DNA of 64,000 nt from a virus (Duplodnaviria; Heunggongvirae; Uroviricota; Caudoviricetes): IMG/VR virus record IMGVR_UViG_3300026549_002476. The stretch is one strand, 5' to 3'. Below are positions 22,546 to 64,000 of the stretch, piece by piece. The translations under genes and the position numbers were made by a program. The first letter of the stretch is position 1; every line of letters begins with the position of its first letter. The notes beneath the pieces are model-generated. The model was not told where the DNA came from and made no database searches. It was given only the letters and a program-made list of their open reading frames with translations.

Positions 22546-22561
22546 ATTATAGAGGTTGTGT

Positions 22562-33361: not shown

Positions 33362-33434
33362 AACATATAAGCCCGATGGTGGTGAATCTAGGGTGATCCT
33401 TAAATTATTTATATACTTAGGAGGAAATTTTATT

Positions 33435-35945
33435 ATGCCACAGGTAGTAAAAAGAGACAATCGAGTAGTTCAATTTGATGCGTCTAAAATTGAAAATGCA
33501 GTTTTGAAAGCATTCATTGACGTAGACAAGGAGGTGACGCCATTTGCAAGAGATAAGGCCCACAATATTGCAGTATATATTGAGGGTCAGGCTCAAGACA
33601 AAACACTGACAATTGAACAGATTCAGGATTACGTAGAGAATGGTTTAATGGCTACTAAGAGAAAAGATGTAGCCAGAGCTTACATGAGTTACCGAATGAA
33701 TAGAACGATAGCTCGTGAAAGAAAATCTTCTTTACACAAAGCCATTGAAGAGAAAATCTTGGCCAGTGATGTTAAGAATCAGAACGCCAATGTTGATGAA
33801 CACAGTTTTGGTGGTCGTAAAGGAGAAGCAGATAGTGTTTATATGAAGCAGTATGCTTTAAACTATCTTATCTCTGATAAGGCAAGATTCAATCATGAGA
33901 ATAACAGAATTTACATTCATGATCTTGATAGCTACGCAGTTGGTTCTCACAATTGCCTTACAGTACCATTTGATCACCTTCTGTCACATGGGTTCACAAC
34001 TCGCCAGACTGACGTTAGACCAGCAAGAAGTATCAGTACAGCAATGCAGTTGGTAGCAGTTATTTTCCAGCTACAGTCACTTGACCAGTTCGGTGGTGTA
34101 AGTGCAAGTCATATTGACACTTCGATGGTGCCATATGTAAGAATGAGCTTTAAGAAGCATTACATTACTTCTTATGTACTTGACTCAGATGATTTTGATA
34201 AGCTCAATGTTGATACAATGACTGAAGAAGAGCTTGATGACTTCATTGATGAGCGTAAAGATGAGTACATGAAGAAGTTAAACCTTACTGATTCAGATTT
34301 TACATTTGACAGTACAAAACTTGATGAACATCTCAAGAAGAAGGCAATACTTCTCACACGCAGGGAAGTTTATCAGGCAGTCGAAGCAACATTCCATAAC
34401 CTAAATACCTTGCAGAGCAGAAGTGGCAACCAGCTCCCCTTTACAAGCATTAATTTTGGATTGGATACTTCCCAAGAGGGTCGTTTAGTAACTCGTGCAC
34501 TTCTTGAGAAATCTATTGAGGGCGTTGGAAGTGTTCATAGAACATCAGTATTTCCTTGTTCCATTTTTCAAGTTAAGTCTGGCATTAACAAGTATCCGGA
34601 TGATCCGAACTACGACTTGTTTATGCTAGCTTTAAAGAGTACATCATTACGACTTTACCCAAATTATGCAAATGCAAATGTTAAGATGCAGCAGAATTGG
34701 GTTAAGATGGACAGGGAAGTTAAGCACAGAGTGATTAATGAGATGTCCGATGAAGATAAAAAGACATTAGCAATTAGATTAAAAGAGAATCCGAGTTTAC
34801 AGGAATCACTTCTTCTCGACTTACATGATGATGGTACATTCACAGTTCATGAAGAAGAAGTACCTATTGAAGTGTTCTCAACCATGGGATGCAGGACTCA
34901 GAACGGCTTTGATTGTTGGGCTGAACATTCATTTAGAGAGAATGTGGCTCATGTAATTAAAGACGGAACATTGTATGATAATTATGTATCTGGAGCACAG
35001 AAAGATGGACGTGGAAACATTTGTCCAGCTACAATAATTCTTCCTACACTTGCTATGGAGGCAAGAGAGAAGGCAGGAGATGGAGCAACTGAAGATGAAC
35101 TTGTAGAAACTTTTATGAATATACTTTCAGTTGCACTTGATGACACTAGGGATGAATTGATGGAGCGTTTCGAGCATATTTGTTCACAGTCAGCTAAGTC
35201 AGCTCCGTTTATGTATCCTAATAACACAATGTATGGATATGTACCTGCTGAAGGAATTCGTTCAGCATTACGCCATGGGACATTAGCCGTAGGTCAGTTG
35301 GGTATAGCAGAAACACTTCAGCTTCTGATTGGTTGTGATCAGACTAATCCAAAGGGTTTGGCATTAGCTGAAAGAATTGAACAGCTTTATGAAAAGAAAT
35401 GTAACGAGTTTAAAAAGAAGTATCATTTGAATTTTGGAGTATACTTCACCCCAGCAGAGAACCTGTGTTATACTGCAATGCTTAAGTTCCAGAGTAAGTA
35501 TGGCAAGATTAAGGGTGTATCAGACAAGGATTTCTTCACAAACAGCATGCATGTGCCAGTTTGGGATAAGATTGATCCATTTAAGAAAATTGACATTGAA
35601 TCTAAATTAACTAAGTATAGTACAGCTGGATGCATTACTTACATTGAACTTGACAATAATTGTCGTAACAACTTAAAAGTGTTGGAGCAGATGGTAGTTT
35701 ATGCCATGGATCATGATGTTCCATACTTTGCAATTAATGTGCCGAATGACACATGTTTGGATTGCGGTTATACTGGTGAGTTTAATGATCATTGTCCAGT
35801 GTGTGGAAGTAAACATATTCAACAGTTACGACGTGTAACTGGCTATCTTACTGGCAATTACACAACAGCATTTAATAAAGGTAAGCAAGAAGAAGTTAGG
35901 ATGCGCTATAAGCATTCAAATAGCTTAAGTAACTGGAATAAATAA
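33435..35945 (+). CDS. nrdD: anaerobic ribonucleoside-triphosphate reductase (class III RNR)
   Basis: RBS ggagga plus ATG at 33435. N-terminal ATP-cone (VVKRDNRVVQFDASKIENAV). C-terminal Zn ribbon CLDCGYTGEF…CPVCGS and glycine-radical motif RRVTGYL. Confidence 0.85.
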   Translation: MPQVVKRDNRVVQFDASKIENAVLKAFIDVDKEVTPFARDKAHNIAVYIEGQAQDKTLTIEQIQDYVENGLMATKRKDVARAYMSYRMNRTIARERKSSLHKAIEEKILASDVKNQNANVDEHSFGGRKGEADSVYMKQYALNYLISDKARFNHENNRIYIHDLDSYAVGSHNCLTVPFDHLLSHGFTTRQTDVRPARSISTAMQLVAVIFQLQSLDQFGGVSASHIDTSMVPYVRMSFKKHYITSYVLDSDDFDKLNVDTMTEEELDDFIDERKDEYMKKLNLTDSDFTFDSTKLDEHLKKKAILLTRREVYQAVEATFHNLNTLQSRSGNQLPFTSINFGLDTSQEGRLVTRALLEKSIEGVGSVHRTSVFPCSIFQVKSGINKYPDDPNYDLFMLALKSTSLRLYPNYANANVKMQQNWVKMDREVKHRVINEMSDEDKKTLAIRLKENPSLQESLLLDLHDDGTFTVHEEEVPIEVFSTMGCRTQNGFDCWAEHSFRENVAHVIKDGTLYDNYVSGAQKDGRGNICPATIILPTLAMEAREKAGDGATEDELVETFMNILSVALDDTRDELMERFEHICSQSAKSAPFMYPNNTMYGYVPAEGIRSALRHGTLAVGQLGIAETLQLLIGCDQTNPKGLALAERIEQLYEKKCNEFKKKYHLNFGVYFTPAENLCYTAMLKFQSKYGKIKGVSDKDFFTNSMHVPVWDKIDPFKKIDIESKLTKYSTAGCITYIELDNNCRNNLKVLEQMVVYAMDHDVPYFAINVPNDTCLDCGYTGEFNDHCPVCGSKHIQQLRRVTGYLTGNYTTAFNKGKQEEVRMRYKHSNSLSNWNK

Positions 35946-36063: not shown

Positions 36064-36618
36064 ATGAATATTCATTACGCTGGCCTTATGTACAATGATG
36101 TATTAGATTCAGTTGAAGGAATAGCAGTATCATTTTGGACTCAAGGCTGTCCATATCATTGTGAGGGATGTCATAATCCACAGACATGGGATCCAAATGG
36201 GGGCTTACAGATAGATCTTGAATTACTTAAACAAGGGATTTTGCAGGGTTTGATAGCTGATGGGGTTGAAAGAAACTTTTCAATTCTTGGTGGTGAACCA
36301 TTGTATGATGGAAATATTCAGATTACAGAAAGTTTACTCACATCAGTAAAACTAGTTTATCCATGGGTTAAAACTACAGTTTGGACAGGAAATACCTATG
36401 AAAAAATAGTGACTGATAAAAGATTTGAAAAGGTACTTAATAACTTAGATTATATGATAGATGGGCCTTTTATTCTAAGCAAGAGAGATATTACATTACC
36501 ATTAAGGGGTTCAAGTAATCAGAGAATAATAGATGTTAAGCAGTCATTAAAAGATGGGGAAGTTAAAGAAATTGATATAGAAAGTATGAAAGATCCACAG
36601 ATGAGGTATAAAGCATGA
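36064..36618 (+). CDS. nrdG: anaerobic RNR activating protein (radical-SAM)
   Basis: N-terminus YAGLMYNDVLDSVEGIAVSFWTQGCPYHCEGCHN, the typical NrdG start with its Cys cluster. Immediately downstream of nrdD. Confidence 0.8.
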   Translation: MNIHYAGLMYNDVLDSVEGIAVSFWTQGCPYHCEGCHNPQTWDPNGGLQIDLELLKQGILQGLIADGVERNFSILGGEPLYDGNIQITESLLTSVKLVYPWVKTTVWTGNTYEKIVTDKRFEKVLNNLDYMIDGPFILSKRDITLPLRGSSNQRIIDVKQSLKDGEVKEIDIESMKDPQMRYKA

Positions 36619-43280: not shown

Positions 43281-43318
43281 GGGCACGGCATTGAATATAA
43301 ATGTCGTGCCCTTTTTTT
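43281..43318 (+). terminator. strong rho-independent terminator
   Basis: gggcacg…cgtgccc stem followed by ttttttt. Confidence 0.8.
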
Positions 43319-43344
43319 ATTACTAATTGACATTAGGACAAAAG

Positions 43345-44220
43345 ATGGCACATAAATATTATGCAGTAGTAAGAGGAAACTTCACTGGAATTTTTAATGG
43401 ACTAGATGAGTTCAATAAGGCTACTAAAGGTTCTAAGCGTACAATAGCTAAAGGATTTGATAACTTAAGTTCAGCATCTGATTACATGATAAAAAATGGT
43501 GTTAAATCCAGTAAGGTTAAGAAATACTGTAAGAAACTAAATGCAAACAATAAAGAAGAGAATCAGAGTTTAGCAGATAAGATTAAAGACCTTGAGATTG
43601 AAAGTAACAATTATGAAGGCAGTATAACAATTAGTTCTACTGATGATACATCTGTTAATAATGAAGAAACGAGCTATCAGCAAGAAGATATAAGTGACAT
43701 TGATACTTCTCATGGAAGTGTAGCTGATATAAAGAGTTGTATAGAATCTCTTGATAGAAATTCTATCATAGCTATAGTAGATGGCAGCTGCGATGCAGGG
43801 TATTCTGGAAATATAGCTAGCGCTTGTATAATTTATGAGAAAACTAATGGAATTATAAAAAAGAACATTATCTGGAAAGCTAACAATGTTTCAGTATCTG
43901 ATGGAAAAATAACAAGCCAGTTTGTTGAAGTTGAAGCCATAATGTTAGCTTTGCAATATGCCAAGTATCATAAGAAAAAGAAAGTAGTAGTTTACAATGA
44001 TTGTTTACCGGCTTTATATTTATTGAATAACAATAAAGGGAATGATGAGAAAACAGTCATTTACAGTTGGAAATACCAGAGATACTTAAATGATCTAGAT
44101 ATAACATTGAGATACATACCTGGGCATTCTGGTAATTTTTATCAAGATGAAGTTGATAAATTAGCAGTTGCAGTTAGATCCAATACAGATCTATGGGGAA
44201 TAAAATTCTTGGAGGTTTAA
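43345..44220 (+). CDS. rnhA: ribonuclease H with N-terminal Cauli_VI / RNase H1 N-terminal domain
   Basis: N-terminus MAHKYYAVVRGNFTGIFNGLDEFNKATKGSKRTIAKGFDNLSSASDYM is the Cauli_VI signature. C-terminal IVDGSCDAGYSG…VEVEAIMLALQYA…VYNDCLPALYLL…GHSGNFYQDEVDKLA matches the RNase H D-E-D-(H)-D motifs. ATG at 43345 (the track start at 43327 is a TTG). Confidence 0.8.
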   Translation: MAHKYYAVVRGNFTGIFNGLDEFNKATKGSKRTIAKGFDNLSSASDYMIKNGVKSSKVKKYCKKLNANNKEENQSLADKIKDLEIESNNYEGSITISSTDDTSVNNEETSYQQEDISDIDTSHGSVADIKSCIESLDRNSIIAIVDGSCDAGYSGNIASACIIYEKTNGIIKKNIIWKANNVSVSDGKITSQFVEVEAIMLALQYAKYHKKKKVVVYNDCLPALYLLNNNKGNDEKTVIYSWKYQRYLNDLDITLRYIPGHSGNFYQDEVDKLAVAVRSNTDLWGIKFLEV

Positions 44221-44221
44221 T

Positions 44222-45652
44222 ATGAAGTACAGTCCAATATCAAAAATTTACATCCAAGATTTTAGAAATCTTGGTAATGTAGCAATTGACTGGACAAAAT
44301 CACCTATAGTAGTGTTGACTGGTGAAAATGAAGCTGGTAAGACTTCAGTTATTAAAGCCTTTACAGTATTAGCTCTTCATGCAACACCAAATGCACAGAG
44401 TGGTTATATCAGAGATGGACAGAAGCAGTTTGGAGTTGCTTGTGACTTAGCTGATGGAACAAGAATTATAAGAGTTAAGCAGAGACCTGGTGGATTTGGT
44501 ACAGTAAACAATTATAGCATAACTTATCCAGATGGTAAAAAGTGGGCAATTAATAAACTTAGTGATGGACTTCCAAAGCCAGTATCTGATCTAATGGGAA
44601 TGATTGTTGAGCCAGATACAGGCGAGTATTTACAGGTTAGAACATACGAAGATAAGTTATTATTTGCTGTAACCCCGTTTAGTACTAACTATAAAGTTAT
44701 GTACAATGCTTTAAAAGTTGAGCAGTTGACAAAGGCTATTAAACTTGGAAGCGATGAAGTTAATAGATTGAAGAGAGAGATTGAATCAACTGAAACAAGT
44801 ATTTTGACTCTTAGAGATCAGGCTAGAGAAATTAAGGTTCTTGATACTGAAACTCTTGTAAACATCAAAGATAGGCTTAAGGATGAATTAAATACTCTTG
44901 ATAAAATTGAAAAGCTTAAGTCATTGATTGATAATGTAGATAGGGCTGAAGATCAACTTGGAGCATTGGCGTTGATTGATAAGTTTGGACTTAGAAGCAT
45001 TGATGAGATTCATTGTTTAAGAGTATTAAACATTGCTAAAGCTTTAGATAATATTAAGAAAGCTGAAGATCAACTTGGAAGTTTAAAATTAATCACAGAT
45101 AATAACTTGCATGGCATAGATGAAATGCTAGCATCTAATTTGAAAAATGCTAGCCGATTGATAGAAAACTCAACTAAACTGAAGAATAAGTTATCAAAGG
45201 TTAGTGAGGTAAGTACTATTCATGAAATTGATCTGAGCCAGTTAAATCAGATAGAAAAAGTGATTAATAAAAAGGCTTACATTGAGAGAAAATTAAGTGA
45301 CTCTCACGGGCTGACATTGGTTAATGATTTGCAGGAAATTTCTGGTACTGATATGGTACGTTTAGATAAGCTATCAAATCTTTATCAGTTGATAAACGAT
45401 GTAAAGCAAAAAGAAAGCAAGTTAAAGATTATTGATACCTCTGAGTATAAAGAAATAAGCATAGATTATCTTGAGAAGTTTGATAAAATTAGAAATTATC
45501 TTGCTGATTCTAATGAGAAGCAGCAGACTGTAAATAAGGTCAAAGATTTTCTGGAACAGGCTAATAACTGGCTTAAGCAACAGGGTATTGCAGTTGAAAC
45601 TTGTCCAAATTGTGGTGAAACAGTAATTTTTGATCTTGATAAACTGAGGTGA
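44222..45652 (+). CDS. SbcC/Rad50-like ATPase, N-terminal half (Walker A plus long coiled coil ending in a CPNC zinc hook)
   Basis: RBS ggaggtt. YIQDFRNLGNVAIDWTKSPIVVLTGENEAGKTSV (AAA_23-like P-loop). Coiled coil with an internal 39-aa tandem repeat. Ends …CPNCGETVIFDLDKLR. Confidence 0.5.
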   Translation: MKYSPISKIYIQDFRNLGNVAIDWTKSPIVVLTGENEAGKTSVIKAFTVLALHATPNAQSGYIRDGQKQFGVACDLADGTRIIRVKQRPGGFGTVNNYSITYPDGKKWAINKLSDGLPKPVSDLMGMIVEPDTGEYLQVRTYEDKLLFAVTPFSTNYKVMYNALKVEQLTKAIKLGSDEVNRLKREIESTETSILTLRDQAREIKVLDTETLVNIKDRLKDELNTLDKIEKLKSLIDNVDRAEDQLGALALIDKFGLRSIDEIHCLRVLNIAKALDNIKKAEDQLGSLKLITDNNLHGIDEMLASNLKNASRLIENSTKLKNKLSKVSEVSTIHEIDLSQLNQIEKVINKKAYIERKLSDSHGLTLVNDLQEISGTDMVRLDKLSNLYQLINDVKQKESKLKIIDTSEYKEISIDYLEKFDKIRNYLADSNEKQQTVNKVKDFLEQANNWLKQQGIAVETCPNCGETVIFDLDKLR

Positions 45653-45657
45653 TTCTA

Positions 45658-46635
45658 ATGGCTAATTTAATTGCAAGAATAGGTATTTATGGGGACATTC
45701 ATTTGAGTAGCAAGAACTATGGAGCACATAGAGATTATCCTAATGAAAGTCTCAATTACTTTAGAAACATTACAAAGATAGCCGAAGAAGGAAGGTTTAC
45801 ACATCTTATTGGTTGTGGTGACTTTTCCTTCGGCAGATTTGGTACTCTTGAATATAGATTGGCAGTTGAGGAAGAACTCCAGAAGCAGTGTAATCTTACA
45901 AAAGGCAATAGATATGAATTGAAAGGCAATCATGATATTGCTGGATACGGTATGACAGAAAGAGATTACTATATTAAGAAGGGATTGATCAAAGACTCAA
46001 CTAATTTTAGCATTGGGAATCTTAACATATCAATGGTAGATTATGGATGTGCTAATACAGCTAATATGAACATCAAGTTAGATTCTGGAATGGTCAATTT
46101 AGCTATAGCTCATGACTTTTATAGATTCAGCAATACTAATACACCACAGTTCGGGCAGGCCATAATTCTTGACAATATGAAGAATTGGTTTGGACTTGAC
46201 TATTTGATTTGTGGTCATGTACATAAGCAGATGACATTTGAAGGTGAAATTGAAAATGCAGATAAAACAGCAAAACATAAGCTGATTGTTGATTATCCAG
46301 GTTCACCTTCTAGACCATCATATAGAGAAGGATACATGGATGAAAATGGTCAAGTGCCAATAATAGATGTTTATGATGATGGAAAGATTGATTTTAACAT
46401 TGCCGAGTTTGATTTGTTGCCATTGAGTGAATCCTTTAATCTCGAAGAAAAGGCTGAAGAAGCTAAGCAAAAAGAAGAGAAAGAAAAGAAAGTTGATATT
46501 TCTGACATAGTGCAGGAATTGGATGCTCATGATAGAAATGTTGGAAACCCAGAAGATATTATAAGATCTATGGAAAATATTGATCAACGATATAAAGATA
46601 AGGCTATTGATTTACTTGAAAGGGCTTTAGCTTAA
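45658..46635 (+). CDS. sbcD: SbcD/Mre11-like calcineurin-type phosphoesterase (nuclease)
   Basis: RBS gaggtg plus ATG at 45658. Phosphoesterase motifs GIYGDIHLS, GCGDFSFG and GNHD. Confidence 0.7.
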   Translation: MANLIARIGIYGDIHLSSKNYGAHRDYPNESLNYFRNITKIAEEGRFTHLIGCGDFSFGRFGTLEYRLAVEEELQKQCNLTKGNRYELKGNHDIAGYGMTERDYYIKKGLIKDSTNFSIGNLNISMVDYGCANTANMNIKLDSGMVNLAIAHDFYRFSNTNTPQFGQAIILDNMKNWFGLDYLICGHVHKQMTFEGEIENADKTAKHKLIVDYPGSPSRPSYREGYMDENGQVPIIDVYDDGKIDFNIAEFDLLPLSESFNLEEKAEEAKQKEEKEKKVDISDIVQELDAHDRNVGNPEDIIRSMENIDQRYKDKAIDLLERALA

Positions 46636-46721
46636 TAAATTTGATAAGATGACATAATTCTAATAAAGGTGTTTTTAAAATTTAATTTATTAGATTTAAA
46701 ATTTTTGGAGGATCTAAACAA

Positions 46722-47255
46722 ATGATGCCGGTTAACATTGAAGAAATTAAAAAGTATAACCAGTCTTTGAAGCAGTACAAGGATAAGGCAGCCAGTTTAA
46801 CTGCTGAAATTGAGTACAACAATAGGGAAATTGACAACCTTTGTAAAGAGCTTTCAGCTGAGTTAGGAGTTGAGGTAACTAGGGATAACATTGAAGAAAT
46901 CTATAATGACCAGGTTAATAAGATTAATTCAATGTTACAGACTGGAACCACAGTACTTCAGAAGATTGCAAACGAAGAGAGTAAGGCAGAAGTACAGGCA
47001 CCTGTTGAGGAAACACCTGTAGATACAACAGCTTCAGCAAATCCTGTAACACCAACAAATCCAGTTAATCAGATGCCACAGTTTAGTTTTGGTAATGAGC
47101 CAGAAAGAGAATCTCATATAAATGTAGATGTTGAGAAGACACCTGAGGGTACCTCAACAACATTTGAACTTCCTGACGATGACGATGAAGATGAAGAGTC
47201 ATCAAATTTTGGTAGTTTTGATCCTAATAAGATCCCACCATTGTTTAATAACTAA
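46722..47255 (+). CDS. hypothetical coiled-coil protein with acidic C-terminal tail (…DDDDEDEESSNFGSFDPNKIPPLFNN)
   Basis: Strong RBS ggaggatct. The tail resembles SSB-type acidic C-terminal tips. Confidence 0.4.
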   Translation: MMPVNIEEIKKYNQSLKQYKDKAASLTAEIEYNNREIDNLCKELSAELGVEVTRDNIEEIYNDQVNKINSMLQTGTTVLQKIANEESKAEVQAPVEETPVDTTASANPVTPTNPVNQMPQFSFGNEPERESHINVDVEKTPEGTSTTFELPDDDDEDEESSNFGSFDPNKIPPLFNN

Positions 47256-47288
47256 TAAATAGATTTGTAATTGGAGGACTTTAATAGT

Positions 47289-48665
47289 ATGATTATTGAT
47301 ATTAATGTTATTAATTCAGCACTTGATAAGATTTCAGATTTAACTTCTGGTGACAAGTCAATGCCCGGACTTCTTCTTGATATTCATGATGAGGACATGG
47401 ATGTTTGTTACTCCGACGGACGCAAGTCTATCATTGATACTATTCCTATCAAAACTGAAGATGGGGATGTCAAGGAGAGAATTGCAGTTACTTATGAGTT
47501 ATTCAAGAATGCAATCAATAACTGTAAGCCAAGCGGAGATATTATTGTAGATAACATCAAGTTTGTGTTTCATACTGATAATTCTACTTTTGATATCATC
47601 AGTGATAATAAGTGTAAAATTGGTGATGGAGATGATGCACAGTATAAGAAGATTTCTACAAAGCAGTTTCTTATTAAGTACACTAATCCTGAAGCTGATA
47701 ACAGAATGAAAGTTCTTTTGAGAGCGAAATACTCAGAAATGTTTAATCCAGAAGCAAATCCTGATACACTTTCAAAGGATGAGCTTACAAATGCTCTTAG
47801 CAAGACAGCTACTGAAAAGGGTAAGCAGGTTTACATTTCAAAAGGTAAGCAGACAGTATTTGTTGTAAACCAGAATTTTGTAACTTGTGTACCGATTGCA
47901 CCTAATGAAGACGGAAGCAATAAGTTGAATTACTCCATGGTAATTCCACAGAACATTGCAAAGTCTATTGTAAACATTGCAAATAGAGTTGCATCTGATG
48001 CTTGGTCATTGTATAATAAGGATCAGAACATCTGTGTTATGTTTACAGAAACAGAGAATGAAAGAGTTGGCATTAGTTTCCAGATGCCAAGTGCTCAGAA
48101 GACTATTGTAGCAGCTCTTCAGAGATATGAGAGTCTTAATTATGATTCTTATAGAATGATGTTTATGAGAGCATTCTTTGTAGATGCTGTTAAGACAGCT
48201 AAGGCTTCTGTAGAGAATCCTAATGTAGAAATTGACTTTGAGAACACCGATGAAGGCATGAAGATGGTCATCAATGGTGGAAATGCAAATGCTTCTACTA
48301 AGAATAAGTATGAAATTACTTGTGAAGATGTACTTGATAATGTTGGTGATCTAGATGGAAAGAAGTATACAATGTCAATTAACAATTTGAGTGATGTTCT
48401 TAATCAGTTTGATGCTGGAGACATTGTATTTGATATTACAGACGATCCAGATGCAAAGATGGTTTATGTAAGGGTAGCTGATGTTGATCGTGATAAACTT
48501 GTTGAAGATTTTGGTAAGATGAGAGAAGAGATGCAGCAGCGTTGCGTTGATAGGGGAGAGACTTTTGATCCTGCTGTTACTCCTACTGATAAGGATCTTA
48601 AAACTAAGTGGCTTAGAAACTGTATGACAACAAAAGAATACTTTATTGTTAATAACAAAGCTTAA
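47289..48665 (+). CDS. hypothetical protein (possibly a replisome accessory protein; unverified)
   Basis: RBS ggagg plus ATG at 47289. Location within the recombination/replication cluster. Confidence 0.35.
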   Translation: MIIDINVINSALDKISDLTSGDKSMPGLLLDIHDEDMDVCYSDGRKSIIDTIPIKTEDGDVKERIAVTYELFKNAINNCKPSGDIIVDNIKFVFHTDNSTFDIISDNKCKIGDGDDAQYKKISTKQFLIKYTNPEADNRMKVLLRAKYSEMFNPEANPDTLSKDELTNALSKTATEKGKQVYISKGKQTVFVVNQNFVTCVPIAPNEDGSNKLNYSMVIPQNIAKSIVNIANRVASDAWSLYNKDQNICVMFTETENERVGISFQMPSAQKTIVAALQRYESLNYDSYRMMFMRAFFVDAVKTAKASVENPNVEIDFENTDEGMKMVINGGNANASTKNKYEITCEDVLDNVGDLDGKKYTMSINNLSDVLNQFDAGDIVFDITDDPDAKMVYVRVADVDRDKLVEDFGKMREEMQQRCVDRGETFDPAVTPTDKDLKTKWLRNCMTTKEYFIVNNKA

Positions 48666-48672
48666 ATTGATT

Positions 48673-49176
48673 ATGAAAAGAGTCTATTTTGATCAAGATG
48701 GTGTCTTAGCTGAATATAAAGTTGAATCAACGGATGTAGATTATGCCCGTGAAGGATACTATTCAGAATTAAAACCAACTAAAGTAGTTGAATATGTTAA
48801 TTCATTGATTAAAGCAAACATAGCTGAAGTATATGTAATAACAATATATTATAAAAAGCCTGCATTTAAAGAAAAAGACGAATGGATGAGCAGATACTTA
48901 CCAAGCTTGGATTCAAAACATAGAATAATTCTTCCTTGGGGAAGCAGTAAGCCATTAGAAGTCGAAAAGATAACAGGTTGTAGGCTAAGCAGTAATGATA
49001 TATTGGTAGATGATCATACTCCAAACTGTTTAGATTGGCAAAGTTTTGGTGGTATGGCAATCAAATGGATTAATGGTATAAACGGAAATCGAAATAGGTT
49101 TAATGGATTACGTATTGACAATTTAAATGAATTAGATAGCATTATTACTGGAGGCAAATTACTGTGGAAAACGTAA
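48673..49176 (+). CDS. NT5C-family 5'(3')-deoxyribonucleotidase (HAD superfamily)
   Basis: N-terminus KRVYFDQDGVLAEY carries the D-x-D-G-V-L motif of NT5C/HAD phosphatases. Confidence 0.55.
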   Translation: MKRVYFDQDGVLAEYKVESTDVDYAREGYYSELKPTKVVEYVNSLIKANIAEVYVITIYYKKPAFKEKDEWMSRYLPSLDSKHRIILPWGSSKPLEVEKITGCRLSSNDILVDDHTPNCLDWQSFGGMAIKWINGINGNRNRFNGLRIDNLNELDSIITGGKLLWKT

Positions 49177-49760
49177 AATTTAGAGTAACAAAGAATAATA
49201 GTGATAGTTTTGGAAAGTATCTTTCTTATCTGCTTAGACATCATCCTGATAAGATTAATCTTTGGGTTGATCTTGATGGCGGTTGGACTAACACAGATGA
49301 TCTTATTGAGAAGATCAATGCATCTGATACAAATCCATTTACAATTACTAAGCCTGTACTTATTGATATTGTAGAAGCTGATGAAAAGAAGAGATTCTCT
49401 TTTAGAGATGATTATAGATACATTAGAGCAAACAGCGGTCATTCTATTCCGGTTCAGCTGAAGTTTGATGAAGTTACACCTGAGAATGATTTGTTCCACG
49501 GGACAGCTCCTCGTACTGCTAAGAGTATTCAGCAGAGTAAGTACATTATTCCAATGAACAGAATGTATGTGCATCTTTCAGATAATGTTGAAACTGCTAA
49601 AAAGGTTGGCGCTAGACATTGTAAGGACGGAGAAACTCCTGTTGTATTTCGTATTGATGTAAAGAAATGTCTTGAACTTGGTGTGAAATTCTATAAGTCA
49701 GAGAATGGAATTTATATGGCAACTAGAATTCCAACTGAAGCAATCAAGGTTGAAGAGTAA
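49164..49760 (+). CDS. kptA: RNA 2'-phosphotransferase Tpt1/KptA
   Basis: GTG start with RBS ggagg. FGKYLSYLLRHHPDKINLWVDLDGGWTNTDDLI, KRFSF, GHS, LFHGTAPRTAKSI, YVHLSDNVETAKKVGARH align well with E. coli KptA (SKFLSFVLRHKPE…, LYHGTASRF…, YVHLSADEATARKVGARH). Confidence 0.85.
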   Translation: MENVKFRVTKNNSDSFGKYLSYLLRHHPDKINLWVDLDGGWTNTDDLIEKINASDTNPFTITKPVLIDIVEADEKKRFSFRDDYRYIRANSGHSIPVQLKFDEVTPENDLFHGTAPRTAKSIQQSKYIIPMNRMYVHLSDNVETAKKVGARHCKDGETPVVFRIDVKKCLELGVKFYKSENGIYMATRIPTEAIKVEE

Positions 49761-49787
49761 TAATTATCTAGGAGATAGATAAATATA

Positions 49788-50549
49788 ATGAATACAGATG
49801 AACTTAGAAAGCAGGCCAATGACTTTATTACAGCTGTTGAGCAGATAGATATTGAAAATAGGGCTGCCATCAGAAGTAAGGAAGCCTTGATGAAGTCAAT
49901 CAATGAACTTGATAAAAAGTGTAAAGATAACAGAGAAGCTCATGAAATAGCTCAAAATGCTATTACAATACTTAGACAGGTATCTGATGAAGCAGTCGGA
50001 AAAGCCTATAAATTCCTTGAGCAGAGTTTAAATGCAGCTTTAGCAAGAATGTTCGTTAGTTCAACTCGTAAGATTGAACTTAAGGAACATACACTTAGAA
50101 ATCAGTATCCACAGCTTGAGATTATTCTCCATGTAGGTGGTGGTAAAACAAGATCATTGAAAACTGATAGTGGTCACGGAATTGCTCAGATTGTATCATT
50201 GTTGAGTGTATTGAGTTTGATAGTTATTTCTGGTTGTAGACGTATCCTTGTTATGGATGAAATCCTTAGTGGTATTTCAGCTAGAAATAGAAAAATTGTA
50301 TCTGACATTCTGTGGTCATTTACAACAATAGGGTTCCAGTTCATGATAGTTGAGCGAGGTTTCATTCCAGAAGGTGCTCAGGTATACAATCTTAAAATGG
50401 AGGGTGACGTTAGCCATGTAGTTGATTCCTATATAGAAACTGATGGAGTATACTTAATGGCTGATGAATCCGCTCAGTTTAAGAATGACAGTGGGATAGA
50501 TGTTAAGGCTTCTAAAACATCTGCTGATAATGAAGTTGTTAGTATTTAA
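49788..50549 (+). CDS. SbcC/Rad50-like ATPase, C-terminal half (short coiled coil, signature-like motif, Walker B)
   Basis: RBS aggagat. …KTDSGHGIAQIVSLLSVL… then RRILVMDEILSGIS (Walker B/D-loop) and MIVERG. Confidence 0.45.
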   Translation: MNTDELRKQANDFITAVEQIDIENRAAIRSKEALMKSINELDKKCKDNREAHEIAQNAITILRQVSDEAVGKAYKFLEQSLNAALARMFVSSTRKIELKEHTLRNQYPQLEIILHVGGGKTRSLKTDSGHGIAQIVSLLSVLSLIVISGCRRILVMDEILSGISARNRKIVSDILWSFTTIGFQFMIVERGFIPEGAQVYNLKMEGDVSHVVDSYIETDGVYLMADESAQFKNDSGIDVKASKTSADNEVVSI

Positions 50550-50572
50550 ATACTTAGATTATAGTGTAGCGT

Positions 50573-50616
50573 TAAGACTCCTAGTAAGCATTATTTACTA
50601 GGAGTCTTAATTTTTT
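50573..50616 (+). terminator. rho-independent terminator
   Basis: taagactcctagtaa…ttactaggagtctta followed by atttttt. Confidence 0.75.
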
Positions 50617-50761: not shown

Positions 50762-52276
50762 ATGAATCAACAACAAGCTTATTGCATAATAATAGTCAGC
50801 ATTAAGAAAAATTATGTGACTGGTAAAATAATTTCTTACGATATTATAACAAATAGAGGGGAAGTGCTGTTTGACCTTAGAGAAGAAGAATTACTTGTAA
50901 AAGTATGGTCTCTTAGGGGAAGTAATGTTGTAACAGTCAATTTTGAAGTAAATAAAAATAAAATTGTTATGTTAAACATGCTTCCTGGTAAGAAAGCTAG
51001 GTATTATGCTAAAAAGACAGTATCAAAATCTGAAAGAAGATATTTTTACATTGTTGTAACTGGATATGACATGAATAATGGAACTTTTGACTATGTTGCA
51101 GAAAAGCCAGATAGAAAGGTTATTCGTGGAAACAGTGCAATTATAGAAGAACTTGTTGGATTGCCAATAAGCAGCAATGATGATTCTGCTGACTTGAGAT
51201 TTTATAATGCATATATAGATAACACAATAAGTAGTAGAAAAACAATGTTTAGACTTGTAGTATATAATAAAAATACTGATGGATATACAGTTCTTCCAGT
51301 TGCTAGAATAAGCAAAAAAGATTTTAACTTAAAGATTAATAGTGATTTTTCAGCACATGGGTTTAAACAAGAAAATGCTGGAATAACTATTAGAAAGATA
51401 ACTCAAGATATAGTAAGAAGAGATAGTACACTCGAAATTCCAGATGGTGTAACTCAATTAGGTAGACTTGAATCATATGGGCCTGTTATAGTATCTTGTC
51501 CAGACTCATTAGTTAACCTTGGAAATGGTTGTTTTGCTAAATATGTAAATCATAGGAACGGTGAATCTTTTAATAAAGCAAATATACTAAATGAGCAAGA
51601 CTATACAGAGTGCCAGTTATCAGAGATATACTTAGGTTCTGGCATTCGAATTATTCCAAAAGATTGTTTTGCATATTCACCAGTTAAGTTTGTGCAGTTA
51701 TCCGGTAGGGAAGTATATATAGCAAATGGGGCTTTTAAATACACAGAGAATCTTAGCGGAACAGTAAGTACAACTGCTAGAAAAATAGGAGTATCTGCTT
51801 TTGAAGGTTCTGGAATAAATACGTTTACTGGGGATAAGCTAGAGTACATTGGTATGAAAGCCTTTAGTAAATGTCCAAACTTATACAGAGTAAAGATCAA
51901 AGGCGAGTTACTGATTATTGGAATGAATATCTTTGATGGAGATGCTAACCTAAGATATGTGTCATTACCAGATAGTGTTGAAGAAATAGGGGCTGAAGCA
52001 TTTCGTGGTTGTAAGCAATTAACAATGATGTTCATGCCAAGAAACATTAGGAAGGTTGGAATAAATGCTTTTAAAGGTTCTGGATTAGCTCAAGCTATAT
52101 TTGGAAATAGCCTTGAAAAAATAGATGAATCAGCATTTGATGATTGTAAGGAAATTCAAAGAATTGAAATACCAAGCACTGCTAAAATAATTCATCGAAT
52201 GAATGATAAAAAGGAACATTTATTAACATCAGAGAAACTCCAGAAAAGATATAATGTTAGAGTATATAAAGTTTAA
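50762..52276 (+). CDS. protein with C-terminal BspA-type leucine-rich repeats
   Basis: Repeats …GNGCFAKY / IPKDCFAYSPV / IANGAFKYTENL / IGVSAFEGSGI / IGMKAFSKCPNL / IGMNIFDGDANL / IGAEAFRGCKQL / VGINAFKGSGL / IDESAFDDCKEI. Confidence 0.55.
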   Translation: MNQQQAYCIIIVSIKKNYVTGKIISYDIITNRGEVLFDLREEELLVKVWSLRGSNVVTVNFEVNKNKIVMLNMLPGKKARYYAKKTVSKSERRYFYIVVTGYDMNNGTFDYVAEKPDRKVIRGNSAIIEELVGLPISSNDDSADLRFYNAYIDNTISSRKTMFRLVVYNKNTDGYTVLPVARISKKDFNLKINSDFSAHGFKQENAGITIRKITQDIVRRDSTLEIPDGVTQLGRLESYGPVIVSCPDSLVNLGNGCFAKYVNHRNGESFNKANILNEQDYTECQLSEIYLGSGIRIIPKDCFAYSPVKFVQLSGREVYIANGAFKYTENLSGTVSTTARKIGVSAFEGSGINTFTGDKLEYIGMKAFSKCPNLYRVKIKGELLIIGMNIFDGDANLRYVSLPDSVEEIGAEAFRGCKQLTMMFMPRNIRKVGINAFKGSGLAQAIFGNSLEKIDESAFDDCKEIQRIEIPSTAKIIHRMNDKKEHLLTSEKLQKRYNVRVYKV

Positions 52277-60035: not shown

Positions 60036-60174
60036 ATTAAACAGTAAATAGATGATAGAATAAAGGTAGGAATGTGATTTTTAGCATTTCTGCCTTTTAT
60101 TTTGTTAATAAACATTTTTATAAAAGAGGTGTTTAATTTTATTTTAGTTTTAATTGATTTATTAGGAGTTGAAT

Positions 60175-63100
60175 ATGCTTGATACTAGTTCGATTAACAT
60201 TTATAATTTAGGTGAAGATGCTTGTAAGTTAATCATTAAGACACTAAAGCTTGATATGTCTGTTGAAGATATTTTTAATCAGATAACAAGCACTATTGAT
60301 TCTATGACAATATGGTTCATAATCATAGGTGTTATAACTTGCATACTTGCTTGGACTGGCAGTAGATTTATACAGGCAGCACAAGGGTTTGTTTGTGGTG
60401 CATTTATAGCCAATCTTGGAGGAATTGTATTATCTTGGTTTGATCCTACAGTAACCACAGAATTTATACATGAATTTTCAATGTTTGCAGGGTTACTCGG
60501 AGCGATTATTGGAATCACATTAAACCAGTTAAGTATACTATTAAATTGTTCAATAACAGGAATAATGGCTGGGATACTCATTTTTAATGGAAAGTTCGAT
60601 ATAATAATGAGTATGTTACTTGGTCTTGTTCTTGGAATCATTATTTCAGTTATCATGGTAGCTGTTAAATCTGTTTCAGCTCCGATTGAATATGCAGTAT
60701 CTGGTGCAATTGATTTTGGTATTGCAGTAACATTCAGGACTGGAAATAAAACACTTGGAATATGGATGTTTATTTTATTTGCAGTTGGTTCAATCAGTGT
60801 TTATTATTTATATTATAATAAATTGTATAAAAGAACTCCTGAGGAAAAGAGAAAAGACCTTGTGAAACTTAAGCTTTCAAATATGTTTGAGATTGAAGAT
60901 GAAAAGTATTACAGACATAAGAGATTAGTAAAGAGCAAAAAGATTTCCATTACAGTACTTGTTGTATCTGCTGTTATTCTTCTTATGATGGTTCTACTAC
61001 CAAAGAGCAAAACTTATATGTACCATTATTACATGATAAGAGCTTCATATGCAAGAACAAACAATGAGAAAGAGAGTTTGTATGACATAGCTAAGTCTTA
61101 TAGAAGTGACAAGTTTAATGTTTATAAGAGATTGGCTGAGTTATACAGCCAGGATGGTAGTACAAGTAACGTAAATAATGAAATTGAAGAAGCAACTAAT
61201 ATATTTGGAGCAGATGATAAGAGAGTAAATGATTTAATTAATGAGTTAACAGTTTCAGTTCCAGTATTCAGTGTAAATTCTGGTGATTATACAGAGTCAC
61301 AAGTAGTTAGACTTACAGCTTCTGAGAATAATAAAATAGTTTATTCTATTAAATCTACTGGATCTGTTGTTTCTGAATCAGATAACAAAGATTATATAAG
61401 TCCAATAAATCTTGATTCTGATGGTACTTATAAGATTTCAGCTAGAACAGTAACACCTGAAGGATACACTAGTGAATTAGTTACAAATACTTATACATTG
61501 GATTTGAACTTTCCAGGTCAGGTTAAAGCAGATATAGAGTCTGGAGATTACGAGGAACCAATAAAGGTTAAGCTTAGTTCTGATGAAGGTTACATTCTAT
61601 ATACAACAGATGGAACAATTCCGAATAATACATCTAAACTTTATAACGGAGCATTGAATGTAGGACTTGGTGTCACAACTATTAATTCTGTAACAGTAAA
61701 TGCTAAAGGAAAGATGAGTAAGGTTTCTAGTGATACATACAGAATTAGCTATTATGATCCAGCCTCAACAACAAAATATTCCAGTGGGTTTAGTGGTTAT
61801 TTTTATGATTACATTTGTAACAATGGAGTGATTAGTGTAAGAAGTAAAACATCAAATAAAGAAGTTGACTCACTTAGTGGTCAGTATCCAAACGAGTATA
61901 ATGATTTAATGTACTATAAAGATAAAGATGGAATAATAGAAGTTTATGATCCATCAACAAATGTTAGCAAGGTGGTTGATACAAATATTGGAAGCATTGG
62001 AATGATGGTAGTTGAACATAATGGAATCTATTATACACCAACTGATAACAAAGGAATGAAATTTTACAGCTTTGACAGTAATAAATCAGTCAAGGTATTA
62101 AATGAAGATGAAACAGTTGTAATGATGATGAGATGCCAAGGGATGTTGTATTTTGTAAGCAACAGCAGACTTGCAAGAATTGAGAAACCTAATGATGTTC
62201 CAGTTGAGCTTGTAAAGTGTGGAAGTAAAGCCAAAGAAGAAAATGAAAAGCTCAAAAAACTCGAGATTGGTTTAAATAATACAGAGACAGATAACAGTGA
62301 TGAACTTGAAGTTAAAAAGACAAATAATTCAGATGACTTATATGGGCTAAAGAGTCTTATTACAGAGAAAGATAAGCAATATGTAATAACCGATGTTTAC
62401 ACTAAAGATAATAAAAACATCTATTATATTGAAGATGGTGCCTTGTATTATTTGGATTACAAGAATAATAAAACTGAAACACTTATTGATACGAAAACAT
62501 CATTTGATGAGAAGTTACCAAGTGGTTGGAAGATCAATGATGATGGTACAGTAACGATTATTAATGAAGATGGAACATATGGAATTTGGAGGAATAATAA
62601 TTCTATTACTTATCCAGTAGTTAAAGCAGATACAACTGATAATAGTGATGAAGCAGATGTAGATGATGTGAATGAAAGAGTCGTTTATCCTGATTACACA
62701 AGTCTTCCATGGGTAAACAAATCAAATGCTGATTCAATTATTAAGAGATATACAGATTTAAGAAGTTTAGCCAATGATGCAGTTGAAAAAAGAACCCCAC
62801 ATATACATGATTTAAATGGGGCAATTCAAAATGAAGATGGTACTTTTACATTAACTGATGGTTCTATTTTATATACTGATGGAACGATTGTAGAAACTGA
62901 TGGAACGATTGTATCACCTACTGGTTCAATAGCTTATGCAGATGGAACAATGGTTTATGAAGATGGCACTGTTAAATATACTGATGGAACTACAGTAGCA
63001 GCTGATGGAACTTCTACATTTACAAATGGAACAGTAGTTGATTCTGATAAGAATATTCATTATAGTGATGGTTCTGTTATAGGTATTGATAATCTTAGAG

Positions 63101-63624: not shown

Positions 63625-64000
63625 ATGACTTTCACAATGATGTGTGGTTTGCCTGGTTCTGGAAAAAGTACTTACGCAAAAGAATTAGAAGATACTAATA
63701 CAGTTTTATTATCATCAGATAGAATTAGAGGAGAAATCTTTGGTGATGAAACTGATCAATGTCATAATAAAGAGATCTTTGAAGAAATGTTCAATAGAAC
63801 TATAAACAATCTCAATGCTGGCAAGAATGTTGTTTATGATGCTACCAATATTGATAGAATGAACAGAATGAATACTTTGAATAACATTAAGTATTCTCTT
63901 AGGGATGCAGGAAGTGTTGAGTTTAAAATCATTGTAGTCGTAAGAGCATTTGATGATTGTGTTGTAGCTGATGCTGAAAGAGAAAGAACAGTTGGTGAAA
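63625..64000 (+). CDS. P-loop kinase, polynucleotide kinase (T4 Pnk kinase-domain)-like; truncated by the window end
   Basis: RBS caggagaaatg plus ATG. MMCGLPGSGKSTYAKE (compare T4 Pnk IGCPGSGKSTWARE), downstream Asp residues. Confidence 0.5.
   Translation, partial: MTFTMMCGLPGSGKSTYAKELEDTNTVLLSSDRIRGEIFGDETDQCHNKEIFEEMFNRTINNLNAGKNVVYDATNIDRMNRMNTLNNIKYSLRDAGSVEFKIIVVVRAFDDCVVADAERERTVGE

Follow-up and report, generated by a model that had tools for sequence, protein, structure and literature searches.

Tpt1/KptA enzymes are established as NAD-dependent enzymes that strip 2'-phosphates from RNA, and the question raised by the locus described here is what such an enzyme does in a phage. The DNA analysed (hereafter the window) was a stretch of 64,000 nucleotides from an uncultivated jumbo phage with a genome of at least 241 kb, found in animal-gut samples. 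In a first-pass annotation, a Tpt1 gene, an adjoining NT5C nucleotidase gene and a truncated T4-Pnk-like kinase gene were read together as a non-canonical phage RNA-repair set, with a ligase possibly lying just beyond the window. Approximately 93 kb of the genome were examined, including 10 kb upstream and 9.5 kb downstream of the window. No DNA-level relative was found among GenBank phages, a search of IMG/VR with Tpt1 patterns did not retrieve the phage, and the PolA was about 25–26% identical to the best known phage match; by sequence comparison, the phage appears to be a new lineage of gut jumbo phage. Coordinates of the features are given in Table 1.

Table 1. Features of the predicted Tpt1 transcription unit and the kinase gene (positions within the window)
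Feature	Position	Strand	Details
Stem-loop terminator ahead of the Tpt1 unit	43281-43311		
Tpt1 transcription unit (inferred)	43327..50549	+	gene gaps -13 to 86 nt; terminators on both sides
Split Rad50/SbcC-like ABC ATPase, N-terminal half	44222..45652	+	AAA_23, E 3e-7
Mre11/SbcD-like calcineurin-type phosphoesterase	45649..46635	+	Metallophos, E 1.1e-6
NT5C-clade HAD phosphatase (predicted)	48673..49176	+	167 aa; motif I FDQDG (D7, D9), K93, motif IV D113-D114
Tpt1/KptA NAD+-dependent RNA 2'-phosphotransferase	49164..49760	+	198 aa; GTG start; PF01885, phrog_5470, 7kw8
Split ABC ATPase, C-terminal half	49788..50549	+	phrog_15167 ATPase, E 9e-7
Intrinsic-terminator-like hairpin closing the unit	50571..50611	+	18 pairs and T-run
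Pnk-HD gene, 5' part	63625..64000	+	ATG start; complete gene 306 aa, truncated at the window end

The Tpt1 and HAD open reading frames were both found on the plus strand where the first-pass annotation had placed them, and the Tpt1/KptA identity proposed there was borne out by profile match, active site and fold. The protein matched PF01885 in Pfam with an E-value of 4.1e-37 (128.4 bits against a cutoff of 26, profile positions 4–175 of 177) and phrog_5470 in PHROGs with an E-value of 5.7e-53. The best match among solved structures was the Runella enzyme 7kw8 (E 3.9e-32, 42% identity). In an alignment of 24 sequences all four residues of the R-H-R-R tetrad were present in invariant columns; R25, H26, R88 and R133 aligned to R16, H17, R64 and R119 of Runella (Runella residues from PMC6097658), and an HGT motif was located at residues 112–114. 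The AF2 model (pLDDT 94.8) had the two-lobe fold, with an N-terminal winged helix and a C-terminal ART-like NAD+ lobe, and was superposed on 9ldg, 6ede, 6e3a and 8tfz with TMq of 0.77–0.80, TMt of 0.86–0.89 and rmsd of 2.0–2.6 Å. The best score against the NCBIfam equivalogs NF002012-15 was 164.6 bits, below the cutoff of 239, and the protein is a family member, yet one divergent from these curated bacterial equivalogs. We conclude that the gene encodes a genuine Tpt1/KptA, and the conserved residues and the predicted fold suggest that it is catalytically competent in the chemistry of its family. A ribosome-binding site (GGAGG, 49150–49154 on the plus strand) precedes the GTG by 9 nt and falls within the last part of the HAD gene, and the identical start was chosen by the gene caller in all contigs. 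On contigs from 69 collection blocks the Tpt1 protein has one and the same sequence (100% identity).

The HAD gene runs 13 nt into the Tpt1 gene, which suggests translational coupling. Alone, the HAD protein matched the Pfam family NT5C (PF06941) weakly (E 4.4e-4, 20.6 bits, below the cutoff of 24.8); it matched phrog_2643 with an E-value of 2.5e-9 and the structure 3bwv weakly. A word-index homolog search retrieved the HAD protein alone, and its relatives (n=1649) came from a full HMMER scan; 57 of the 63 sampled matched NT5C, with a best E-value of 8e-13. Across 63 sequences D7-Q-D9, K93 and D113-D114, which belong to motifs I, III and IV, were invariant or nearly so. Single-sequence AF2 prediction gave a poor model (pLDDT 37). 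The protein appears to be a catalytically intact phosphatase of the NT5C clade. Its relatives are often fused to LPD11, LPD25, MuF_C, ArdC-N, YodL or RadC domains, and the clade is a common one in polyvalent proteins of phages and plasmids, where it has no RNA-repair link. The nucleotidase call was upheld at the level of the clade, but the part assigned to the protein in an RNA-repair set was not. A conserved HAD-Tpt1 pairing was also considered and rejected, since the adjacency was absent at the eight other Tpt1 loci inspected. Assignment to the 'Swiss-army-knife' RNA-repair HADs (HAD_SAK) was rejected as well, as the protein is unlike the HAD_SAK_2 protein of another Tpt1 contig (L017) and its relatives are NT5C. 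Most likely it is an ordinary (deoxy)nucleotidase of phages and mobile elements, co-transcribed with Tpt1 and not mechanistically tied to it.

The predicted transcription unit comprises, in order, genes for RNase H, the N-terminal half of a Rad50/SbcC-like ATPase, an Mre11/SbcD-like protein, a protein of 177 aa, a protein of 458 aa with a weak clamp-like match, the HAD protein, Tpt1 and the C-terminal half of the ATPase, so that HAD and Tpt1 are nested between the two halves of the split ATPase. The N-terminal half has a Walker A motif (GENEAGKTS), a coiled coil and a zinc-hook-like CPNCG motif at its end, and covers positions 2–228 of the 374 of the mad3 model. The C-terminal half has a signature-like DSGHG followed by Walker B (ILVMDE) and covers positions 176–349 of the same model (E 3.8e-8). 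The operon was rejected as a defence system: PADLOC returned generic ABC-ATPase head matches, and none for Tpt1 or HAD.

This setting raises an explanation in which Tpt1 modifies DNA or RNA ends within a recombination module, by NAD+-dependent ADP-ribose capping of 5'-phosphates or by removal of terminal 3'- or 2'-phosphates, with the Mre11/Rad50-like nuclease, RNase H and HAD as partners, for example in protecting or processing phage DNA ends or primers. Besides the position of Tpt1 and HAD inside the split ATPase, in one unit with the Mre11-like and RNase H genes, it would fit the finding that a subset of Tpt1 enzymes caps 5'-phosphorylated RNA and DNA and removes terminal 2'- or 3'-phosphates (PMC6573784), and complexes of KptA with DNA have been crystallised (9ldg and others; PMC12678800). 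However, phage gene order often mirrors the timing of expression and not a common function, the linkage of Tpt1 to recombination genes was seen only in this phage species, and no reversal enzyme of the Macro or PARG type was detected. Moreover, Runella Tpt1, the closest relative that has been characterised, neither caps 5' ends nor removes terminal phosphates (PMC6573784). We consider end modification unlikely, and the fuller proposal, that Tpt1 and HAD are functional parts of the Mre11/Rad50 (split SbcC) module and serve NAD+-dependent end processing and not tRNA repair, rather improbable.

The kinase gene lies 13.9 kb from Tpt1, outside the terminator-bracketed unit. As the first-pass annotation had it, this is a truncated kinase gene, a P-loop kinase opened by ATG and cut by the window end. 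Its complete sequence was taken from a contig that matches the window with 100% identity over 13.7 kb. The part in the window matched AAA_33 (E 6.5e-17) and phrog_505 polynucleotide kinase (E 3e-14). At full length, AAA_33 was matched with an E-value of 5.5e-18 and the Pfam HD family with an E-value of 2.3e-3, below the cutoff, and H...HD...H...D motifs are visible in the C-terminal domain, which lies outside the window. The kinase domain has a P-loop starting at G8 (G8-S-G-K-S-T), D32 and R35; it alone was covered by the match to the bacterial Pnkp family TIGR04075 (E 1e-11), and the match to the Clostridium thermocellum Pnkp (CthPnkp) kinase 4gp6 (E 5.5e-7) aligned SSDxxRG. GSGKST corresponds to the P-loop of CthPnk, and D32 and R35, the predicted Asp (general base) and Arg of the 5'-OH acceptor site, correspond to D38 and R41 (PMC3902929). 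The gene thus appears to encode a bacterial-Pnkp-type polynucleotide kinase fused to a putative HD phosphoesterase (Pnk-HD). The label T4-Pnk-like holds as far as polynucleotide kinase, but the protein is closer to C. thermocellum Pnkp than to T4 and its putative phosphatase domain would be of the HD and not the HAD type.

Pnk-HD is flanked by a gene for a 1098-aa surface-type protein and, directly after it, one for a YhaM-like 3'-5' exoribonuclease (NF010007, E 7.8e-34). The 9.5 kb beyond the window encode this exoribonuclease, a GNAT protein, a DUF4349 protein, an FtsH-like protease, DnaJ, three proteins without a family match (320, 94 and 378 aa) and an uncharacterised protein of 185 aa. 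A metagenome scan with the downstream DnaJ gave generic J-domain matches alone. Bacillus Tsamsaviruses encode full-length homologs of Pnk-HD with the same architecture; these lie immediately downstream of a tRNA ligase gene, in a region that also has a second RNA ligase and genes for NAD salvage.

A search for partners was made across the approximately 93 kb. Pfam and PHROGs, run in the window on essentially all ORFs of at least 200 aa, detected no RNA ligase, 2H/LigT CPDase, Macro or NADAR in this sequence; no convincing ligase candidate came out of a scan for the K-x-[DN]-G motif, and in tblastn no hit to four Tsamsavirus queries (tRNA ligase, RNA ligase, DNA ligase and nucleotidyltransferase) was better than E 0.87. 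The suggestion of a ligase just beyond the window was not supported, as neither an RNA ligase nor a CPDase was found in the 9.5 kb downstream. The window and its flanks yielded no tRNA genes, and the window no Rfam families and no ArkI-like gene. Of the RNA-repair set first proposed, Tpt1 and the kinase are both present, but they are 13.9 kb apart in separate units and no ligase was found.

A strict fungal/plant pathway, in which a Trl1-like phage ligase requiring a 2'-phosphate and a CPDase are encoded elsewhere and Tpt1 removes the junction phosphate after sealing, would agree with the presence of the kinase and with the finding that the Runella-type Tpt1 (42% identity) is proficient only on internal 2'-phosphates (PMC6573784). 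It is nevertheless improbable, with neither ligase nor 2H CPDase in the approximately 93 kb, and the putative HD domain of the kinase protein is of a class for which 2',3'-phosphoesterase activity is described (PMC6097658). Such an enzyme would be expected to yield 3'-OH/2'-OH ends and not a retained 2'-phosphate.

The missing ligase near Tpt1 would be accounted for if the enzyme erased internal RNA 2'-phosphates independently of ligation, either Up47-type tRNA marks or those set by a 2'-phosphorylating host defence. Removal of Up47 by KptA homologs, that of E. coli among them, takes place both in vitro and in vivo, and some bacteria have ArkI kinases (PMC9095486). Yet Up47 is known mainly from thermophiles and the phage is from animal-gut samples, and the window has no ArkI-like gene. 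In addition, we know of no RNA 2'-kinase defence, and this role appears quite improbable. An accessory gene that acts on neither RNA nor DNA in infection, and instead, for example, consumes NAD+, makes an ADP-ribose-cyclic-phosphate signal or decoy or is a recent passenger, would suit the isolation of the Tpt1 cluster (next relative 49% identical) and its changing neighbours, but is very unlikely given the perfect conservation of the protein across many samples, the intact active site, the strong ribosome-binding site and the need of Tpt1 turnover for a phosphorylated acceptor.

Tpt1 is already known from phages. A KptA annotation is carried by 98 phage records in GenBank, among them Erwinia Alexandravirus, Klebsiella Siatvirus and C. 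difficile phiCD211, and two comparative surveys discuss the phage enzyme as part of RNA repair (Iyer et al. 2021, PMC7824862; 2022, PMC9503650); 'non-canonical', as the set was first called, therefore overstates its novelty. On other phage-like contigs, genes for RNA repair or ADPr processing lie no more than 10 kb from a related Tpt1: HAD_SAK_2 on L017, Macro and HAD_SAK_2 on L024 and NADAR twice on L025, while the closest Tpt1 relative (L029) has a tRNA gene alongside. The neighbours differ at every phage locus inspected. No experimental test of any phage Tpt1 was found in the literature.

The reading we prefer, at what we would call an even chance, is that Tpt1 does the cleaning up when the phage repairs RNA, probably tRNA. 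Host ribotoxins would cut RNA to 2',3'-cyclic-phosphate ends, healing or ligation of these ends would leave 2'-phosphates, and Tpt1 would remove them. Likely helpers, 14 kb downstream, are the YhaM-like exoribonuclease and Pnk-HD, which would heal the ends; a ligase may be encoded elsewhere in the genome of at least 241 kb or supplied by the host. This role is favoured because a putative end-healing Pnk-HD with CthPnkp-like catalytic motifs is encoded in the same genome, because the Tsamsavirus Pnk-HD homologs follow a tRNA ligase gene, because other phage-like Tpt1 contigs carry RNA-repair or ADPr-processing genes, and because the Tpt1 protein is conserved without change across the 69 collection blocks. 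The 42% identity to the proven Runella enzyme (PMC6097658) and the same prediction for phage KptA in both surveys (PMC7824862, PMC9503650) also argue for it. It is disfavoured because the approximately 93 kb yielded no RNA ligase, 2H CPDase, Macro or NADAR and the window and flanks no tRNA genes, and because Tpt1 sits with DNA recombination and replication genes and is not clustered with Pnk-HD. Furthermore, no natural 2'-phosphate RNA substrate is established in bacteria (PMC6573784).

How organisms that lack a fungal-type tRNA ligase use Tpt1/KptA has long been an open question (PMC6573784); by itself this instance does not make it more testable, since the phage is uncultivated. What is added is a well-conserved and apparently active Tpt1 from a new gut jumbo-phage lineage in an unusual context, an Mre11/Rad50-like operon with the Pnk-HD/YhaM pair elsewhere in the genome. 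A true link to the recombination module would suggest that nucleic-acid ends are a physiological substrate of Tpt1. Phage Tpt1 itself is not new, and the finding mostly confirms the earlier comparative surveys.

Repair of tRNA by phage T4 needs no Tpt1. As predicted for Pnk-HD, its Pnkp, acting with Rnl1, joins a 5'-OH polynucleotide kinase to a 3'-end phosphoesterase in one phage protein, but the T4 phosphatase is a HAD (DxDxT) where an HD domain is predicted here, and no Rnl1 was found here. Fungal and plant splicing by Trl1 and Tpt1 shares the Tpt1 chemistry and catalytic residues; however, a Trl1-type ligase and a 2H CPDase were not detected in the approximately 93 kb, and there is no sign of intron-containing tRNAs. 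Likewise, the partners in the KptA-Macro/NADAR/2H network for Appr>p (Iyer et al. 2022) were not found in the approximately 93 kb. With the NT5C (mdN/cdN-type) 5'(3')-deoxyribonucleotidases and the NT5C-like modules of polyvalent proteins from phages and conjugative elements, the HAD protein has motifs I, III and IV in common, although it scores under the Pfam cutoff and its relatives are often domain fusions.

The Bacillus Tsamsavirus cassette (for example Skywalker gp122-gp121) has a full-length homolog of Pnk-HD (29% identity, E 4e-32). There, Pnk-HD comes straight after a tRNA ligase gene, with a second RNA ligase at a distance of 3 kb; here a homolog of neither was found, and the neighbours are the surface-type protein and the exoribonuclease. 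Runella Tpt1, a proven 2'-phosphotransferase, is encoded in an HD-Pnk/ligase/Tpt1/MTase-HIT cluster (PMC6097658). The Runella slithyformis system has the same R-H-R-R tetrad, and this genome also has a predicted kinase and HD end-healing enzyme; it differs in the order of the domains (Pnk-HD here, HD-Pnk in Runella), in the distance between the genes (13.9 kb, where those of Runella are clustered), in that no ligase or MTase-HIT was found, and in being a phage and not a bacterial chromosome. The KptA proteins of jumbo and other large phages are likewise stand-alone Tpt1 enzymes of about 180–200 aa, 38–43% identical to the one described here and with a predicted RNA-repair role, whereas this one belongs to a different lineage, is nested in an Mre11/Rad50-like operon and overlaps an NT5C-like HAD gene.

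The Tpt1/KptA gene and the upstream gene for an NT5C-like HAD protein (hereafter HAD) overlap in a window of low GC content (~31-40%) whose long ORFs are essentially all on the + strand, and both received identical gene calls on all metagenomic contigs bearing them. GGAGG is found within the 3' end of the HAD gene, 9 nt before the Tpt1 GTG. The Tpt1 protein matched Pfam PTS_2-RNA/Tpt1-KptA nearly end to end (E 4.1e-37, 128 bits, cutoff 26) and PHROG 5470 'RNA 2'-phosphotransferase' (E 5.7e-53), and its best match among solved Tpt1 structures was that of Runella slithyformis (7kw8; E 3.9e-32, 42% identity), which bears out the first-pass annotation of this gene. The residues essential in Runella Tpt1, R16, H17, R64 and R119 (PMC6097658), align with R25, H26, R88 and R133 of the phage protein. 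These four and the HGT motif were invariant in an alignment of Tpt1 and 23 homologs, and an AlphaFold model built on the 23-homolog alignment (pLDDT 94.8) was superposed on Tpt1/KptA crystal structures from Thermococcus, Clostridium thermocellum and Pyrococcus with TM 0.77-0.89; the objection that the catalytic tetrad might be absent therefore fails. Judged from sequence and model, the enzyme looks active. Its identity is established, and its substrate and partners we infer.

Features of the window, its flanks and related Tpt1 loci (L008, contig identical to the window along 13.7 kb and extending 9.5 kb downstream; L012, 10 kb upstream; L024, L025 and L029, other phage-like metagenomic contigs)
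Feature	Position	Strand	Description
Second LRR_5 protein	L012 1-2408		>1331 aa
D12 adenine methyltransferase	65-1096
Family A DNA polymerase	22556-27274		1572 aa; interrupted by intein with LAGLIDADG homing endonuclease domain
NrdD	33393-35945
NrdG-type activase	36064-36618
Hairpin terminator	43281-43311		Strong
Unit gene 1: RNase H
Unit gene 2: ABC/SMC-type ATPase	44222-45652		476 aa; Walker A, long coiled coil, terminal CPNCG hook-like motif
Unit gene 3: Mre11/SbcD-like phosphoesterase
Unit gene 4: acidic coiled-coil protein			177 aa
Unit gene 5			458 aa; weak match to clamp family
Unit gene 6: NT5C-like HAD	48673-49176	+	167 aa; Pfam NT5C, PHROG 2643, HMMER relatives
Unit gene 7: Tpt1/KptA	49164-49760	+	198 aa, GTG start; Pfam, PHROG, structure matches
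Unit gene 8	49788-50549		253 aa; signature-like motif, Walker B
Hairpin terminator	50571-50611		Strong
BspA-type LRR_5 protein	50762-52276		504 aa
Transmembrane protein	60169-63471		1100 aa; multiple transmembrane helices, CHB_HEX_C/Fn3_assoc domains
Pnk-HD	from 63625, past window end	+	P-loop kinase N-terminal, HD motifs C-terminal
YhaM-like OB+HD 3'-5' exoribonuclease	L008 14468-15490		~840 nt past window end, next gene after Pnk-HD; NF010007 E 7.8e-34
FtsH-like AAA+/M41 protease and DnaJ-domain protein	L008 20211-23219		605 aa and 201 aa
Other genes in the same 9.5 kb			GNAT, DUF4349 protein, unknown proteins of 320, 94, 378 and 185 aa
Tpt1 neighbourhood	L024 5084-6400		Tpt1 within 4-10 kb of Macro and HAD_SAK_2
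Tpt1 neighbourhood	L025 1-868		Tpt1 within 4-10 kb of two NADAR genes
Locus of closest Tpt1 relative	L029 792-1311		49% identity; then tRNA-Met gene (989-1062)

For the kinase gene cut off by the window end, the full 306 aa were read from a contig sharing 13.7 kb with the window at 100% identity. The N-terminal domain of the protein is similar to the bacterial Pnkp kinase domain (TIGR04075, E 1e-11; C. thermocellum Pnkp 4gp6, E 5.5e-7), and the P-loop and SSD-x-x-R acceptor motif both align with CthPnk, D32 corresponding to its general base D38. HD-domain motifs occur in the C-terminal half (Pfam HD E 2.3e-3, sub-cutoff), which argues for a Pnk-HD fusion and against the T4-type enzyme first proposed, although the polynucleotide-kinase assignment itself stands. 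In T4 Pnk the kinase is fused to a HAD phosphatase domain, whereas here it appears to be fused to an HD domain; Runella HD-Pnk has the same two modules in the opposite order. Full-length homologs were found in Bacillus Tsamsaviruses, where the gene lies directly 3' of a 'tRNA ligase' gene and close to another RNA ligase and to genes for NAD salvage; this context favours a function of the family in RNA end healing. The YhaM-like gene directly downstream of Pnk-HD is a pairing not seen in the Tsamsavirus cassette.

A ligase had been suggested just beyond the window, and no recognisable one was present among the genes of the downstream 9.5 kb. RNA ligase, RtcB, 2H, Macro and NADAR were likewise not detected by Pfam and PHROG in essentially every window ORF, nor in the 10 kb upstream, and Tsamsavirus tRNA ligase, RNA ligase and DNA ligase used as tblastn queries returned nothing; only Pnk-HD was matched. 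These searches covered ~93 kb of a genome of at least 241 kb, elsewhere in which an RNA ligase may be encoded. The proposed RNA-repair set was recovered in part, with Tpt1 and the kinase but not the ligase. The leading explanation, which we regard as an even call, is that Tpt1 is an active NAD+-dependent 2'-phosphotransferase acting in phage RNA repair, in which Pnk-HD would heal RNA ends as its partner and the YhaM-like exoribonuclease would possibly do the trimming.

Tpt1 lies 13.9 kb from Pnk-HD, with genes for large repeat/surface-type proteins in between. Two BspA-type LRR_5 proteins were observed, of a kind that gut Firmicutes and Bacteroidota typically carry on their surface. Around Tpt1 itself, eight tightly packed genes are bracketed by the terminators. 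The 476-aa and 253-aa products match complementary parts of one ABC ATPase model (mad3, 374 positions: 2-228 and 176-349, respectively) and so look like two halves of a Rad50/SbcC-like ATPase split at the zinc-hook (CPNCG). They are encoded ~4.1 kb apart, with the Mre11-like, 177-aa, 458-aa, HAD and Tpt1 genes between them. By gene content, Tpt1 appears nested in a DNA recombination/replication operon, and the main rival explanation is accordingly an end-processing role within an Mre11/Rad50 module. Some Tpt1 enzymes have been shown to ADP-ribosylate 5'-phosphate DNA/RNA ends or to remove terminal 2'/3'-phosphates (PMC6573784; PMC12678800). However, Runella Tpt1, the closest characterised relative, is without these side activities (PMC6573784), and the gene order may reflect co-expression timing only; we consider this role unlikely. 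Alternatively, by analogy with Up47/ArkI-KptA (PMC9095486), Tpt1 might erase RNA 2'-phosphate marks independently of ligation. A strict Trl1-type pathway or a passenger gene are the other options.

HAD alone was a marginal Pfam NT5C match (E 4.4e-4, under the Pfam cutoff) and matched PHROG 2643 '5'-3' deoxyribonucleotidase' at E 2.5e-9. A word-indexed homolog search returned only HAD itself; an exhaustive HMMER scan gave 1649 relatives. Pfam NT5C was matched by 57 of 63 sampled relatives, and the alignment shows conservation of the HAD-family catalytic residues D7/D9, K93 and D113-D114, so the nucleotidase label holds at clade level. Many relatives carry fused LPD11, LPD25, MuF_C, ArdC-N, YodL or RadC domains, which are typical of the 'polyvalent proteins' of phages and conjugative elements, and fusions to AAA_28 kinases also occur (relatives P0079-P0227). 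Together these fusions suggest that in mobile elements the clade serves as a conflict-related nucleotidase module. Nothing ties the clade to RNA repair, and HAD's proposed membership in such a set was not upheld. HAD-Tpt1 adjacency was absent at the eight other Tpt1 loci fetched. HAD was also considered as a HAD_SAK 'Swiss-army-knife' RNA-repair phosphatase and rejected, being unrelated to the HAD_SAK protein near Tpt1 in other phage contigs.

The genome size follows from one sample (ERZ27252065), because the window spans the junction of k141_64279 (124.8 kb) and k141_923847 (116.4 kb); among the contigs given for the window's protein clusters is one of 400,213 bp. This jumbo phage was seen across numerous runs, one of them a wolf-gut assembly, and neither GenBank nor IMG/VR holds a close relative; a search of IMG/VR by Tpt1 patterns did not recover the phage itself. 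At the DNA level it resembles no GenBank phage, its PolA shares no more than 26% identity with that of any known phage, and by these comparisons it can be taken as a new lineage. Pooled scans of ORFs between 5462 and 32444 gave PspA/IM30, AIM24, SPFH/Band_7, DUF285 and ParB_N matches, two Mom-like DNA-modification proteins and two homing/HNH endonucleases.

Tpt1 was found by tblastn in 98 GenBank phage records (38-43% identity), many already annotated kptA, including Erwinia, Dickeya, Klebsiella and Serratia jumbo phages and C. difficile phiCD211-like, Bacillus and Listeria phages; its neighbours there are mostly hypothetical proteins. The literature search turned up no experiments on a phage Tpt1. 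KptA of large/jumbo phages is explicitly treated in two comparative surveys, which predict that it clears 2'-phosphates as part of NAD+-dependent tRNA repair, alongside 2H, Macro and ligases (PMC7824862; PMC9503650). The metagenomic relatives fit this picture, lying near HAD_SAK_2 (contig L017), Macro and HAD_SAK_2 (L024), NADAR (L025) or a tRNA gene (L029). Further GGTTCGA-type T-arm-like motifs on L029 were not called by ARAGORN. ADPr-processing partners (Macro, NADAR) near Tpt1 in L024 and L025 are missing around the window Tpt1, which belongs to the already known phage-encoded Tpt1/KptA and lies in a mildly unusual genomic setting.
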